Positions 4,005 to 64,000 of a DNA stretch of 64,000 nt are shown in pieces. Where the stretch lies: positions 8,940 to 72,939 of the forward strand of contig CAWDJS010000008.1 in NCBI GenBank assembly GCA_963802585.1, written 5' to 3'. Each line of letters starts with the position of its first letter. Position 1 is the first letter of the stretch. A model generated the notes under the pieces. The model worked only from the letters and a program-made list of their open reading frames with translations. It made no database searches and was not told the origin of the DNA. The position numbers were made by a program, and so were the translations under genes. Origin of the DNA: an uncultured Alphaproteobacteria bacterium (lineage in GTDB: Bacteria; Pseudomonadota; Alphaproteobacteria; Rhizobiales; Xanthobacteraceae).

Positions 4005-4766
4005 ATGGATCGGCCGGACCAGACCACCCATTTTGGCTTCCGCGACGTGCCGCTGGAAGAAAAGCAGACGCTGGTGAACGACGTGTTTCACAGCGTGGCA
4101 CGGCGTTACGACCTGATGAACGATTTGATGTCGGCGGGCCTGCACCGGGCCTGGAAGGACATCATGGTCACCACGCTCAACCCGCCCAAGAACGACAGGC
4201 CTTACGCGCTGCTTGATGTCGCCGGCGGCACCGGCGACATCGCCTTCCGCGCCGCGCAGGCCTCTGGCGCGGGATTCCGCGCGACCGTCTGCGACATCAA
4301 TGCCGACATGCTTGCCGTCGGCCGCGACCGCGCCGCCAAGCGCCATCTCGACGACCGTGTGGCATTTGTCGAGGGCAATGCCGAGGCGCTCGCCTTTCCC
4401 GACCACAGTTTTGACGGCTACACCATCGCCTTCGGCATCCGCAACGTGCCGCGGATCGATCTGGCGCTCACTGAGGCCTTCCGCGTGCTCAGGCCGGGCG
4501 GGCGATTGCTGTGCCTGGAATTTTCCTCTGTCGATGTGCCGGGGCTCGACCGGCTCTATGATCTCTTCTCCTTCAGGGTGATCCCCGAGCTCGGCCGCGC
4601 GGTGACCGGCGACGCCGAGTCCTATCGCTATCTCGTGGAGTCCATCCGCCAATTTCCGAAACCGGCGGCATTTGCCGACATGATCCGCACCGCCGGCTTC
4701 TCCCGCGTCAACTGGCAGACGCTTTCCGGCGGTATCGTGGCCTTGCATTCGGGCTGGCGTTTGTGA
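4005..4766 (+). CDS. ubiE: Ubiquinone/menaquinone C-methyltransferase
   Basis: [30 protein letters not shown] and GRLLCLEFS motifs. GGAG RBS upstream of ATG 4005. Confidence 0.96.
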
Positions 4767-37435: not shown

Positions 37436-37511
<76 letters not shown>

Positions 37512-55809: not shown

Positions 55810-55909
55810 TGGTGCCCAGGAAAGGATTGTCGGGCACCGTGCGTAAAACAAGCAAAATCAATGACTTAACGTCAACGCCCTTGTCTCGTTTGTACCAAGG
55901 AAATGTACC
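55810..55909 (-). mobile_element. att-like junction: degenerate tRNA 3'-end copy plus flanking repeats
   Basis: The minus strand reads AATCCTTTCCTGGGCACCA (tRNA-Leu-like T-arm/acceptor end). Next to it are AAAATCAATGACTTA and a TGTACC direct repeat (55891, 55904). Base composition shifts from here. Confidence 0.6.
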
Positions 55910-56953: not shown

Positions 56954-57137
56954 AGATAAAGGCCGCGCCCGCCTCGTTTCTGGGTGATTGTAGCAGAACG
57001 CAGCCAGCAGCAGCACGCCCCCCGCGGCGTTTGCCCAAGCTGTCGCTGAGCCAGAGTTAACGATTTCGAGCTATGTGCAGGCTGGAGCGTTTCTTGACTG
57101 AGAAGATCATGTTGCGTGCGCGTGGGGACAGCTGCTG

Positions 57138-57335
57138 TTGCGAGGTGCCGTGAGTCTGGGGGTCGTCGCCGTGACAGCGCTCTGCTTGACCGGGTTCTTA
57201 TCTTTGATCGCGACGAGTTTTCAGCCGAAAAAGCAAGCGGTCGCTGAAACGATCACTACCGGCAACTGTAAGCCCGGCCATTGCCGTCCCAAGACAAGCA
57301 ACGGGCGCCAGGTCGTTGCCGCAAAAGCCCAATAG
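57138..57335 (+). CDS. Small membrane-anchored hypothetical peptide (65 aa)
   Basis: N-terminal hydrophobic helix and a CKPGHC motif. Confidence 0.4.
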   Translation: MRGAVSLGVVAVTALCLTGFLSLIATSFQPKKQAVAETITTGNCKPGHCRPKTSNGRQVVAAKAQ

Positions 57336-57419
57336 AGCCCTGAAGACGCTTCGACGTTCGAGCGCATCCGCCGTTCCTACCCGCGCTCCCGACGTGGAGC
57401 GTATAGGAACACTTGCCTA

Positions 57420-57518
57420 TCAGATGACAGACGCCCAAGTGCCGGCGCCAGCCGCTGCGATCATTATGGTAATAAAAATTGCCGCTTCGATTGGCGACAA
57501 AGTCCATGGGGTGCGCAT
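57420..57518 (-). CDS. 32-aa hydrophobic peptide
   Basis: MRTPWTLSPIEAAIFITIMIAAAGAGTWASVI, with GGAG 8 nt upstream of the ATG. Confidence 0.45.
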   Translation of the reverse strand: MRTPWTLSPIEAAIFITIMIAAAGAGTWASVI

Positions 57519-57852
57519 GTGGATAACTCCGGTATTTGTCGCCCCATTCGACAAAATAGCTTTTGATTTTGAAAAAGTTATGAAGGGCCTGTACAGGCCG
57601 TCCTTTGGGCGCCACCTGTGGAGAAGTCGCGCGCCTATACCGTGTCCATCGTTGCGGCATCGTATCCATCGCGGCCCGCCCGGGGGTTGCTTTGATGAGG
57701 TTGCATCGTCAGGCCATTTGGTGGTGTGCGGGCGGCGATCCAGGGCGGCATTGCGACCGGGTTGCGAACTAAGGTAGCGGCACGTCTTTTGGCATGGCCG
57801 CCTTCTGCAGCTCGGCCGCGCCGCTCGAACCAGCGACGAGGACTTTTGTCGC

Positions 57853-59109
57853 TCAAGCAGCGGCGGCGCAGCATGAGAGCAAGGCTCGCTGCTGACGTAT
57901 CCAGATTTCGAGATCGGCGACGAGCGGCCTCGACTTCTCACGACGTACGGCAAGCCGCTGTTCCGGCGTTTTGCCGTTGATAGTGCGCTCGATCTCGAAC
58001 AGAACATCGATGCGCCGCACGGCCTCGCTGGCAATCGGTGCCTCTCCCGATTTCGCCAGGTCGAAGAACTTTCTGCGGCCGTGGCTCCAGCAGGCGGCTT
58101 CAAGGATTGGGGCCGGCTTTCTTTGAGCCTTATAGAGCTGGTTGTATCCATCAAAGGCATCGGCCTGCATGAGGCCCACATAGCCAGCGAGATGGCTTTG
58201 CGGATGCTCTCCAGCCCGGTTGCGTGAGTAGTAGAACAAGGCTGCCGGCGGATCCGTGCTGCCAAACGGCCGGTCATCGCGAACATAGGTCCAAATCCGG
58301 CCGGTGACAGTCTTCAGTTTCGCGAGTACGGGCACCGTCGTGTCATCGGCGTGGATACGCTCCGCGCTCATGACGTGGGTCCGGATCGCCTCAATAATGG
58401 GATCGAGCGCCACCACGCAGGCGCCGACCCGATCCGCCAGGGTCGAGACATCGATCTCGATCCCTTCGCGGGCATAGGTCTTGCTCTGGCGGTTCAACGG
58501 TTGATGCAGCAGGAACTTGTTGACCAGCACCATCGCCAGCAGGTTCGGTCCGGCAAAGCCGCGCGGGATCGGATGGGAGGGCGCCGGCGCCTCGGTGATC
58601 GCCTCGCAATCCCGGCAGGAGAACTTTTCGCGGACGTGCTCGATAACCTTCCAGCGCCGCGGCTCGCATTCCAGGGTCTTCGATACCACCTCGCCGAGCT
58701 TGTGCAGCCGCTCGCTGCCGCATTTGCCGCACGCGCAAGGCGCCGGTTCGACGATGCGTTCGACCGGCAGGTTATCTGGCAGGGGACGTCGGGGCGGCCG
58801 CGGATTTTGCGAACGCTTCTGTTTGGCGGCTTCTGGTGCTGCGATCTCGGCCTTGGTTTCCTGCTCCGCCTGGGTCTCTTCAAGATCCTCGATGGCGAGT
58901 TCGAGCTGCTCGACCAGCAGCTTGCCGCGTTCGGAGGATTGCCCGAACTGCTCGCGCCGCGCCTTGGCCAGCATCAGCTTCAGCCGTTCGATTTCCAGCC
59001 GGCCGACCGTCACTTCGCTCTTCGCCAATGTCAGCTGTTCGCGCTGCGCAATGATCATCGCATGCGCAGCGGCAAGGTCGGCGGGAAGCGGATCGGAGGG
59101 CGTCGTCAC
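57853..59109 (-). pseudogene. tnpC: IS66 transposase TnpC, C-terminally truncated
   Basis: REQFGQSSE, the Cys finger, HADDTTV, QADAFDGY and CWSHGRRKF are present. The NNAAER third catalytic segment is missing. Confidence 0.88.
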
Positions 59110-59179
59110 GATGACGAATCAATCATATTCGCCGTAAAAAATCCCACCAGATTGCTGTCGTAAGTCAAAAAGCCACAGC

Positions 59180-59527
59180 TTAACCGGAAGCCTGCGGACG
59201 CCATGTTGCCTGCGGCATGCGCCAGTCGATTCCCGACAGGAGATAGGATAGTTGCGCAACGCTGATCGTGATAACGCCGTCCGCAAGCGATGGCCACAGA
59301 AAGCGGCCGCGCTCCAACCGCTTCGTGAACAGGCACGCGCCCTGGCCGTCATGCCAAATGATCTTGACCAGGTCGCCGCGGCGGCCCCTAAAAACATAGA
59401 GATCACCAGCGTGCGGATCCCGCTTCAAGCCCTCCTGAACCAAACGCGCAAGGCTCGGGAATCCGCGGCGCATATCGGTATGGCCGGTCGCAAGCCATAC
59501 CCGTACATTGCCCGGTATGGCAATCAT
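59180..59527 (-). CDS. tnpB: IS66 accessory protein TnpB
   Basis: VWLATGHTDMRRGF, YVFRGRRGDLVK, KRLERGRF and LLSGIDWR motifs. Confidence 0.95.
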   Translation of the reverse strand: MIAIPGNVRVWLATGHTDMRRGFPSLARLVQEGLKRDPHAGDLYVFRGRRGDLVKIIWHDGQGACLFTKRLERGRFLWPSLADGVITISVAQLSYLLSGIDWRMPQATWRPQASG

Positions 59528-59922
59528 CGGCGCTCAAGCACCGCAAGGACCCGAGCCAGCGCATCCGGGTCGACGTGCGCATCCACCCGGATGCGTCGTC
59601 GGTTGCCAAGATCGATCTCGATCAATCCAATCCGGGCGACTGCCACCGATCGCACCCGCCTGTCATCCTCGGGCAAAACCTTCGCAGTTTCCTCGAGCGC
59701 TTCCGCGGCCGCGATCTGCACCGGCGCAAAACACGGTCCAGCCTGCTCCACCGTCCGAGCCTGTCGACGCCAGGTGAACACCACGCTCGCCGCTACCCCG
59801 TTGCGACGGGCGACCTCCGTCACCTTCGCGCCCGGCGCCAGCGTCTCCTCGACAATCCGCGCCTTGTCATCCTGCGACCAGCGCCGCCGCCGCTCCAACC
59901 CGCCCAAAACCTCGACCCGCAT
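59524..59922 (-). CDS. tnpA: IS66 accessory protein TnpA (HTH)
   Basis: RRRRWSQDDKARIVEE...VARRNG....VFTWRR motif. Confidence 0.93.
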   Translation of the reverse strand: MRVEVLGGLERRRRWSQDDKARIVEETLAPGAKVTEVARRNGVAASVVFTWRRQARTVEQAGPCFAPVQIAAAEALEETAKVLPEDDRRVRSVAVARIGLIEIDLGNRRRIRVDAHVDPDALARVLAVLERR

Positions 59923-60602: not shown

Positions 60603-63600
60603 TCATTCGCTCGTCGCCTTACAAACATCGATGGGAGGCTGATTATCGGCGGCACCAATAAGACGCATTTCTGCGGGTGGAGAGAGAATAGTGACACCCG
60701 CGAGTTCGCTGCTACAAAGCTCTTCGACAATCTTACTAATCGGTTTGGTAACCTGCTCTACGTACCAAATTCTCGTAGCCACCTCAGATGTCACAACAAT
60801 CTCTTTGCCGCTCGGACTAAAATTCGCTGAAGCGACACCGATTTCCCTTGCGTTTCCTTGGTCGTCAAACCTCACCGGGATATCGTTTGCATCTTGGAAA
60901 GTTGCCAGCACGCCGCGCGTGTTCGAGTCCCCAGATCCGAACGGTTCCGTCGTCCGAAGACGTACTATTCGGTTCCCATCGGGACTATAACTTGCTGAGT
61001 TCACGCCAAGCTCATGGTTCCCGAGAGTGGTTATCTTACGGTCCCCCTTCAGCTCGATGATCTGAACCTGGCCGTCATCCAAACCAATTACGAGATGACT
61101 GCTGTCTGGGCTAAATGCCATGCTTTCAATGGCCGCTAGCGTACCCATTTCGAGAACTGCATCATTCGTATCGACTATTCTGACGCTCAACCGGCGTGAG
61201 CTTTCAAGTGACGTGGTGGCAATCATCTTCCCATCTGGGCTAAACGCTACACATTGAACTTCGACCGGTCTTGCGGCTGTTGGCGCTGAATTGTCATTTG
61301 ACTTCAAAAGGAATGTTCCGGGCTTCATTGATATTAAGGCGGCCAAGCGATCCTTATCTTGAACAGCGGTCAATTGATCCGTCTGCTTGTCCCAGATTTG
61401 GATTTTTCCGTCGATCGTGGATGTAATAATTCGCGATCTATCTTGGCTGAAGGCTATTGAGATAATTCCGGTGCTCAGTCGAAGTGGCGTTCCGATAACC
61501 TTTCTAAGCTGTGCATCCCAAACTGTCGCCGTTCCACGATTGGATCCCACAACAATACTCTTTCCGTCTGGATCAAAGGTGGAGGAAAGGAACTGGTCAT
61601 CGCCTGCTTCGATTGTATTTAAGAGCCTGATTGACGTAGATGTCGCGAACACGCAGTGTCCCTGCGTCAGACGTTGTAACAAGCTTCGAGCCATCGGGGC
61701 TGAAGCTTATAGACGACACGACGTCCGGGAAAACATTCAGCTCGATATTCGTTTAATTCTTGCCGATGTCCCAAACTCGAATTCTGTTTTTAGACCCCAC
61801 AGCCAACTGCCTACCGTCACGGCTGAGCGCCATCGACGCGACGTCTTCGAAAGACCCCTCGAGCGAGCCGAGTTCAACTCCACTTTTTGTATCAAAAACT
61901 ATTACCGAACCGCCTCGTAAATCAACCAAAAGTTTTGTGCCATCCAAACTGAATAACAAATTGACTACGTCGCCCGAGCGCACGTCAATGGTGCGGGTTT
62001 GAGATCCAACCAAGATCTTGACAGGGCGATCGCGAGATTCGTTCCACGATAGCCAGTTGCTCCCCCTTTGATGAAATTGCGGCCAGCTTTGCGGTCGCTC
62101 GGATCGAAGAAACGAGCTCTGCACGTGTTGTATTTCAAATCTCGATATTCCCGCCATCAAGGATTGTTAGGAGGAAAGCTCCATCGGCACTAAACCTCGC
62201 AAATTTGACCTCTAAGTTTTTATCTTTCTCTTCTGATCGGTCTAATTCACGGAGTTTCGGCGATGGGAGCCTGGCCACAATTTCTCCAGTCGCGATCTCC
62301 CATATTGCCTGTTCATGCGTGATGTTGAACTGGTGATGGGGATCTTGTTCCGACGCCGAGAAGCCGATGAAGGCCAGTGTTCCGTCGACGCTCTGGGCAA
62401 ACGAATAGAGCCTACCTGTTATCATGTCGCTTACTTTGTGCAGCGCACGGCTCGTGTTGTCGAACAAAAATCCCAAATATCAATTCTGCCATTGTCAGAC
62501 TAGTAGGATTTCAGAAGAATTATTCAAGAATGTTGCTGTCGTTAAGTGGTCGTTCGCAACAATTTGCCATGACGATTGCGATGCAGCTCTTGCTAATTCT
62601 GAATTGGCCAAAGATCCTTCTGCTCGGGCCGGGCCTGACCGCGAGTCATAGCGGCTACCAAGAATGGCAAACCTCATAGCGCCGTTCAAATCACCGACCG
62701 CGCGTCTATTGGACGCCAGCCCAGCAAAATAGTTGGCTTGAGTATGTGCGAGGGCCTGGGCCTGAATTTTTTATCTAGCCGTTGACTTTGGGTCGCAGCT
62801 AGAGCCTGCGCGTCCTCTATTGCGCGGCTTTTGACTTCAATCTCATGCGCAAGTCGCTCGGTCTTCTTGTGTTCGCTTTCGGCTTCTGCTTTTCGCGATC
62901 AAAAGTGCATCGGCTTGTATTTTGAGCTCCACACTTCTTCTCTCTTGATAAACTGCATTTTGAAAGAGACCAAAGCTTACAGTGGCCAGCGGTAGAAGTA
63001 GAATTGAAGCCACTGTCGCCCACCTGACGACCCTCTCTCTGCGGCGCCTTCTCTGCTCACGATCAAAGGAAAGCGCCACAAACTCCTGAAGGTCGTCTGT
63101 CGTCAAATCACCCGGGTCACTGAGCAGATTTCGGGCCCGCTCAAGTTGAAAGCCCGCAGACAGAAGAAGATCTTCCCGTCGGCCCTGCTGGTCCCATTCC
63201 GCTTTTGCCTGCAGTATCGCTGTGCGAGCGCGTAGCTTTACGCAATTCGCGTTTATCCAATCCTTCAAACGCGGCCAAGTCCGAATCAGTGCCTCGTGGG
63301 CGACCTCTACCGTTGGTCGACCGGCGCGGTCTGAACCAGTCACCAATAATCGCACTCGCTGTCCAGCAAACTGATCTACTATTCGACGCTGCTGAGTTTC
63401 GGCTGGCATTACCGCGCGGGCGCGCGTATCTTCTTGACCTTCGCCAGGCGTAACGAGGCGGAGAAACAGCTGTCGAGCTGCTCGCTGATCGGATGAAGAC
63501 AGCGAGTTAAACGCTCGCTCCGCCGTATTGCGAATAGCTTCTCGAACTCCACCAGAACGCGCATAAGCGTCGGCGTCTATCGATGCCCCTTTACATAGAC

Positions 63601-64000
63601 CCCATGTTTCTTTCAGAGCATATTGGAGGAGTGGCAACATACCCTCGTCTTCGCCAGCATCATCCAATATACGCTCGACCAGCGAGCTAGGATCGAACGT
63701 AACGCCAACTTTTTTCGCCGGCTCAACAATAGTTTGTTGCAACTGATCGCGCTGCATCTTGCCGAGAAGGATTTGGTAAGTAGGCAATAATGCTTTTAGT
63801 CCCTCGTGAGAAATCAAAGGATCATAAAAATCCGCGCGTACCGTTCCAACGATAGTTACGGGACCACTTCTGCCTAGTTCAAAATTAGATCAATCGAGCT
63901 TCACATCCTCTCTGCAGCGTGAGCCACGCGTCAGCGTCGCGTCGAGGCGCCTGCGCATACAGTTCTTCCCATTGATCAATATATAACAAGAGACGATCTG
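60603..64000 (-). pseudogene. nSTAND1 NTPase - transmembrane - WD40 beta-propeller protein, multiply disrupted, 5' part beyond the window
   Basis: Walker B LLLYIDQWEELY at the right edge, then GTVRADFY, LPLLQYAL, GGV..AI...AE, LFLRLV and EVAHEALIRTW (STAND). TM helix follows RRRRRER, then many FSPDG...IW/VWD repeats across the fragments 62843-63817, 62495-62689, 62135-62476, 61753-62160 and 60603-61694. Confidence 0.88.

Follow-up and report, generated by a model that had tools for sequence, protein, structure and literature searches.

A decayed TIR-nSTAND1-WD40 gene on a probable tRNA-Leu(CAG) island and the predicted membrane topology of its family

Domain content and decay of the gene

Contig C8 (CAWDJS010000008.1; 73790 nt) from the assembly of an uncultured alphaproteobacterium of the Xanthobacteraceae (GCA_963802585.1) was analysed over a stretch of 64,000 nucleotides, C8:8940-72939, hereafter called the window; coordinates above 64000 are window-equivalents on C8. 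At the high-coordinate end of the window, on the minus strand, lies the broken remnant of a gene of the nSTAND1 NTPase family (PF20703), which extends 851 nt beyond the window to the end of the contig (window-equivalent 64850; L001:2702-3551). Stop-to-stop frames were mapped over window 64851-60400, and Pfam was then run on the pieces. Read along the minus strand, the pieces encode a TIR domain, the nSTAND1 NTPase, an Arg-rich stop-transfer sequence, one transmembrane (TM) helix, a helical stalk, approximately 12-14 WD40 blades and a tail with two cysteines. The individual features are as follows.

60603-64000, minus strand: body of the nSTAND1-family pseudogene within the window (three-frame map; Pfam on the pieces)
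64850-64521, minus strand, beyond the window: TIR_2 domain (PF13676; Pfam E = 1.6e-13)
63888-64000, minus strand: end of the N-terminal half of nSTAND1 with the Walker B motif LLLYIDQWEE, followed by stops and a frame shift
62846-63889, minus strand: uninterrupted frame of 348 aa, the longest in the cytoplasmic half, with the helical and winged-helix half of nSTAND1, linker, stop-transfer and TM helix (PF20703, E = 1.7e-65)
63032-63052, minus strand: Arg-rich stop-transfer RRRRRER, on the predicted cytoplasmic side of the helix (sequence reading; family charge bias)
62963-63022, minus strand: predicted single TM helix WATVASILLLPLATVSFGLF (Kyte-Doolittle 19-mer maximum 1.99)
62498-62898, minus strand: post-membrane helical stalk in two frames (f0, 62898-62689; f2, 62770-62498; frame map)
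60765-62560, minus strand: decayed WD40 region of about 12-14 blades across frames f2, f0 and f1 (blade profile; Pfam WD40)
60606-60764, minus strand: C-terminal tail with two cysteines (ELCSS...IDVCK), ending at a stop at 60603-60605

An initial annotation, made from the letters of the window, had described a relic of a membrane-spanning NLR-like receptor (NLR: nucleotide-binding leucine-rich-repeat receptor) and had listed a Walker B motif, the STAND helical and winged-helix motifs, RRRRRER followed by a TM helix, a coiled stalk, WD40 repeats and a Cys-containing tail; all of these were recovered on the minus strand at the places given for them. The annotation had also expected an effector encoded just beyond the window. 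Retrieval of the upstream sequence bore this out, as a TIR domain fused at the N-terminus of the pseudogene lies in the final 851 nt of the contig, together with the Walker A motif. At the position of the nearly invariant Q74 and E77 of alignment A2, which includes the conserved Glu of NAD-cleaving TIR domains, the relic carries QQYER, and by this Glu its TIR is assigned on sequence to the NAD-cleaving type. In the frame following the TIR frame stands the nSTAND1 start motif CPYRGL...FFFGR. The 176-aa frame at L001:2589-3116 matches nSTAND1 profile positions 21-141 (E = 1.3e-23, 84.7 bits), and the 348-aa frame matches positions 151-378 of 379 (222.6 bits); both lie well above the curated PF20703 cut-off of 27.1 bits, so that the nSTAND1 assignment of the annotation stands. 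Walker A (GRSGSGKSS) is read in the translated frame beyond the window edge and Walker B, LLLYIDQWEELY, begins at 63998; the corresponding columns are invariant or nearly so in alignments A1 and A2. In the stalk (62898-62498), frames f0 and f2 contain the coil AEAESEHKKTERLAHEIE and the string QANYFAGLA. WD40 matches occur in three further frames, with E = 2.9e-24 (PF00400) on the last frame of 367 aa, and a blade profile derived from an intact paralogue (described below) matched 13 times in the interval 62499-60765, with E<0.01 for nine of the matches. The Cys pair of the tail is shared with the family consensus and with the paralogue. These tests confirm that the observation is real and well beyond chance.

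The gene is heavily broken, as the word relic had implied, and stitching of frames was indeed necessary to read it. From the three frames laid side by side and the blade profile, we located approximately nine frame changes, near 64600, 64340, 63940-63880, 62900, 62775, 62000, 61650, 60980 and 60925. The first splits the TIR domain, the one at 63940-63880 follows Walker B and is accompanied by stops, and those at 62900 and 62775 fall in the stalk. At least four in-frame stops were found in addition (62497-62495, 62482-62480, 62137-62135 and 61755-61753). The changes near 60980 and 60925 form a compensated double frameshift hidden within the long last open reading frame (ORF), where one blade is read as YSPDGNRIV in one frame and SSDDGTVRIWGLE in another. 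Contig C8 ends 1 nt ahead of the motif VDVFISYSR, before which homologues carry 6-25 residues, and because of this contig end the first codons of the pseudogene are missing. The locus is not one open translatable gene; it is a pseudogene of the nSTAND1 family and no working member.

Sequencing error is an unlikely source of these breaks, because the same assembly holds an unbroken paralogue of 1425 aa and full-length core genes (rpoN, aroA and the lpt genes), because some of the breaks are substitutions, and because nSTAND1 genes fragmented into two or three frames are present in two further genomes of the genus (G081:C14:93403-94649 and G058:C36:45161-46413). Decay of the nSTAND1 gene thus recurs in the genus, with at least three broken loci. 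One soil metagenome run (X1, 2024), containing 5% of the locus words, yielded two contigs of 151 nt that are nearly identical in sequence to the relic's 3' end (window 60620-60931), one of them with a 3-nt deletion at 60679, and a further alignment of 35 nt at 63417-63451 that contains 5 mismatches.

Family, intact paralogue and predicted transmembrane helix

More than 2000 long homologues were found for the 348-aa piece, and the best 120 (P0001-P0120) share 60-76% identity with it over the NTPase half. These 120 proteins differ in their C-terminal part, which consists of WD40, TPR, Sel1, FGE-sulfatase, dCache, pentapeptide or PDZ domains. A conserved TIR-nSTAND1 cassette joined to unrelated post-TM parts suggests, at the level of sequence, that sensors are swapped at the TM boundary. 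The WD40 part of the relic itself has no protein relative above 37% identity (range 24-37% to any known protein), and therefore no intact orthologue is known. Likewise, 300 genomes of the genus, searched at the DNA level, gave no orthologous locus, only 68-70% matches to the NTPase core, and a search for related loci returned two at 63% identity. The family is patchy in Bradyrhizobium, being present in 24 of 120 other genomes. None of the statements made here depends on G016, a genome marked as unpublished. Searches of PADLOC, NCBIfam and, by sequence, the Protein Data Bank (PDB) gave no match for the NTPase.

Two TIR-nSTAND1-TPR genes, of 1147 and 1114 aa, were found in B. betae Opo-243 (L029:8948-13653) and in an alphaproteobacterial metagenome-assembled genome (MAG; L028:9002-13605). 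Each is overlapped at its stop by a gene of the PF00144 beta-lactamase/penicillin-binding protein (PBP) family, and this pair is conserved in the two closest named loci.

The intact paralogue (P0121) lies on contig C9 of the same genome (L014:4328-8602, minus strand), has native GC content and encodes 1425 aa with the order TIR-nSTAND1-TM-14 WD40-Cys tail. Its N-terminal 673 residues were modelled by AlphaFold2 (AF2) with a predicted local distance difference test (pLDDT) score of 84, giving TIR, nucleotide-binding, helical and winged-helix domains and a long helix. The model of the C-terminal 793 residues (pLDDT 81) shows this same helix as a continuous one of 73 residues through the membrane, followed by two short helices, approximately 14 blades and a helical tail with the Cys pair. 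By Foldseek, the best matches of the N-terminal model include the plant TIR-NLR RPP1 (7crc, 583 columns), CED-4 and ORC/Cdc6, and those of the C-terminal model are the tandem double propellers 2ymu, Utp/Pwp2 and Apaf-1; a solved structure related by sequence was not found in the PDB. At 38 nt downstream of the paralogue lies a gene for a 621-aa protein (L014:2422-4287, minus strand) with a clear Sec signal peptide, MRFTGFIWLVWIPLMLPAQAAAG, and without a Pfam match. This protein may be an exported partner of the paralogue.

The initial annotation had placed the NTPase inside and the WD40 propeller outside the cytoplasm. Statistics over the homologues mark the predicted TM helix as characteristic of the family and agree with a membrane-spanning arrangement of this kind. 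A single strongly hydrophobic 19-mer (Kyte-Doolittle, KD>=1.6) occurs 40-120 residues past the end of nSTAND1 in 113 of the 120 close homologues, and the same helix is present in 25 of 29 nSTAND1 proteins of a more distant sample picked by WD40 similarity. At the stricter KD>=2.0, a helix was found in the expected window in 93/120 proteins and elsewhere in the same proteins in 4/120; the median maximum hydrophobicity was 2.24 in the expected window compared with 1.43 elsewhere. The 15 residues before the helix contain on average 5.0 Lys and Arg, those after it 2.4, the N-terminal side being richer in 102 of the 113 proteins and poorer in 2. Members with a dCache domain have a second TM helix after it, which is the usual arrangement for a periplasmic loop. 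A single helix with a positive inside predicts a type-II protein with its N-terminus in the cytoplasm and its C-terminus outside. The cysteine content was also considered as evidence for a periplasmic location, and was rejected as too weak (0.28% before the TM helix, 0.54% after it). Among proteins found through the WD40 piece, four Ser/Thr-kinase-WD40 proteins (P0125, P0129, P0130 and P0211) carry a strongly hydrophobic helix that separates the kinase from the propeller; post-TM WD40 propellers are therefore not confined to nSTAND1 proteins.

The probable surrounding island

Over the locus, GC content is 0.49-0.52, compared with approximately 0.63 for the genome. Two further features of the window mark the surroundings of the relic.

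57853-59922, minus strand: IS66-family element next to the relic (tnpA 59524-59922, tnpB 59180-59527, tnpC 57853-59109)
55810-55826, minus strand: att repeat at the far boundary of the island, matching 17 nt at the 3' end of tRNA-Leu(CAG) exactly (E = 6e-5 against the genome's 52 tRNAs)

In the IS66 element, which is present as a single copy in the assembly, tnpA is supported by the Pfam family HTH_Tnp_1 and tnpC by zf-IS66, LZ_Tnp_IS66 and DDE_Tnp_IS66, and tnpB was assigned by its position between the two only. The tnpC gene is truncated, with the DDE_Tnp_IS66 profile matched only to position 220 of 284, and short repeats on C24 and C17 share 85-89% identity with the left flank of the element (57000-57630), so that decay or interruption has affected the element as well.

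The only tRNA-Leu(cag) gene of the genome is on contig C23 (c[4372-4458]) and is directly followed by a DUF6538/phage-integrase ORF. The island part of C23 (L015:1-4371) comprises this ORF (c2752-4350), a metallophosphatase gene (c1710-2315), an unknown ORF of 419 aa and a helix-turn-helix fragment cut by the contig start. The empty site is represented by the relatives G012 and G013, in which the window's TetR gene, tRNA-Leu(cag) and the epimerase gene of C23 form one contiguous stretch. A tRNA gene with an adjacent integrase, a far repeat of its 3' end, an empty site and a deviant composition are the marks of a tRNA-anchored island, and all of them were found here. The island, of 13.4 kb or more (9.0 kb on C8, 4.4 kb on C23 and an unassembled gap between the two), carries the DUF6538-type tyrosine integrase, the metallophosphatase, the decayed IS66 element, orphan ORFs and the relic. 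The end of C8 was searched for overlap with any other contig, and none was found.

The initial annotation had placed the relic in a tRNA-anchored island. This holds for the island at tRNA-Leu(CAG), with its integrase on C23 and its 17-nt repeat; it does not hold for the only tRNA of the window, tRNA-Ala(ggc) at 37436, which was rejected as an anchor, being split from the locus by core genes that fill 37.6-55.1 kb (MarR, OsmC, an ABC transporter, the ptsN-hpf-rpoN-lptB-lptA-lptC cluster and others). The metallophosphatase and the 419-aa ORF of the island have no meaningful similarity to the neighbours of the paralogue. The segment 55170-55720, which separates the TetR gene from the tRNA-Leu repeat, is approximately 70% conserved across many genomes of the genus, has no Pfam match and in G018 directly adjoins tRNA-Leu(cag); an earlier variable insertion at this site is a possible origin.

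Interpretation and relation to known systems

We conclude that the locus is very probably a non-functional pseudogene of a single-chain TIR-nSTAND1-TM-WD40 protein on a low-GC foreign island at tRNA-Leu(CAG). The relic copy does nothing in this genome. The proposed working of intact members follows the established behaviour of STAND proteins and of TIR effectors. The intact protein would have type-II topology in the inner membrane, with TIR and STAND ATPase in the cytoplasm, one helix passing through the membrane and continuing as the stalk, and, on the periplasmic side, a double seven-bladed WD40 propeller that ends in the Cys-pair tail. Binding of a ligand to the periplasmic propeller would free the ATPase switch via the continuous helix, the released protein would oligomerise laterally within the membrane, and clustering would switch on its TIR domains, leading to NAD depletion or signalling.

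Several points weigh against this interpretation or parts of it. The frameshifts are assembly-level calls; the join of C8 and C23 comes from synteny and is not assembled; support for the topology consists of hydrophobicity and charge statistics; some fungal NACHT-WD40 proteins, although soluble, likewise pass the KD threshold of 1.6; and the three intact loci (the paralogue, B. betae and the MAG) have housekeeping genes and no defence genes as neighbours. The first of these, together with the position at a contig end, would suit a gene that is in fact intact, its breaks being assembly or sequencing errors or programmed frameshifts. Some nine frame changes and at least four stops of substitution type within 4.2 kb speak strongly against such a gene, as do the unbroken paralogue and core genes of the same assembly, the fragmented copies in G081 and G058 and the near-identical 151-nt pieces of the 3' end in an independent soil metagenome, and we consider it extremely improbable. 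The use of prediction for placing the helix, and the false positives at KD 1.6, likewise leave room for a hydrophobic segment that does not span the membrane, with a WD40 sensor in the cytoplasm as in Apaf-1, Avs and bNACHT proteins; the STAND sensors characterised so far act in the cytoplasm, and Dore et al. 2024 predicted some nSTAND1 targets of diversity-generating retroelements (DGRs) to be cytoplasmic. Such an arrangement is improbable in view of the hydrophobicity contrast between the expected window and the rest of the same proteins, which persists at KD>=2.0, the Arg/Lys-rich N-terminal side in 102 of 113 homologues, the isolated 73-residue helix of the AF2 model, the two TM helices flanking dCache in family members and the 'TM' marked at the same position in the source data of Kaur 2021.

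The role of the family is a separate matter. The initial annotation had inferred defence or conflict cargo; PADLOC 2.0 matches the TIR part only, its models not including one for the NTPase, and the evidence examined lends no support to a defence role. Instead of being directed against phages, members of the family might serve in signalling or envelope surveillance, as receptors that respond, for example, to cell-wall state, competitors or kin conflict and work with exported partners. The signal-peptide neighbour of the paralogue and the PF00144 neighbours, as hints of envelope-related partners, would suit this role, along with the housekeeping surroundings and the missing NTPase model. A combination of TIR and STAND is, on the other hand, a standard immune or abortive-infection pairing, the TIR piece matches the Thoeris and CBASS TIR models of PADLOC, this copy sits on a mobile island, and patchy occurrence with repeated decay is as expected of conflict genes. 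We regard surveillance as quite possible, if somewhat short of an even chance. As to the immune reading, we put forward tentatively, and with rather more doubt than confidence, that nSTAND1 proteins are trans-envelope immune-type receptors in which a TIR-NTPase cassette and a TM helix are combined with freely swapped periplasmic sensors (WD40, TPR, Sel1, FGE, dCache, pentapeptide).

The same NTPase family and the same domain order, including the TM helix, are contained in the nSTAND1 conflict-system NTPases of Kaur, Burroughs, Iyer and Aravind, eLife 2021 (PMC8195603; PF20703). In the source data of Figure 2 of that study, nSTAND1+TM is recorded 412 times, nSTAND1+TM+BetaPropeller 278 times and TIR+nSTAND1+TM+BetaPropeller 6 times; its main text is silent on a TM helix or an extracytoplasmic sensor, and a TM helix after nSTAND1 is not discussed in the main texts of the literature searched. 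The architecture is thus already catalogued, in print only as supplement rows, and the present locus, being a pseudogene, adds a dead member. Avs, bNACHT and plant TIR-NLRs such as RPP1 follow the same tripartite logic of N-terminal effector, STAND ATPase and C-terminal repeat sensor, but are soluble cytoplasmic sensors, whereas here a predicted TM helix parts the switch from the sensor. The two tandem seven-bladed WD40 propellers predicted for the paralogue resemble those of Apaf-1 and of the Nostoc 14-WD40 double propeller 2ymu, from which they would differ in their location outside the cytoplasm and in the helical tail with its Cys pair. Analogous in layout are the receptor-like type-II TIR-ParA / PCTM proteins (bioRxiv 10.64898/2026.10.19.760177), which likewise join a cytoplasmic effector and NTPase through one TM helix to a variable periplasmic sensor (TPR, pentapeptide); their NTPase is ParA (SIMIBI), whereas that of the present family is STAND.

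As a decayed passenger of a small tRNA-Leu island the locus is minor in itself; it documents the gain and loss of such genes in Bradyrhizobium. If nSTAND1 proteins do act as trans-envelope receptors, their triggers would be periplasmic (competitor toxins, wall damage or parts of an entering phage, for example), exported partners might take part, and the family would represent a bacterial hybrid of Toll-like receptor topology and NLR mechanism. The intact paralogue in the same genome offers a convenient subject for testing whether TM-bearing STAND switches sense the periplasm.

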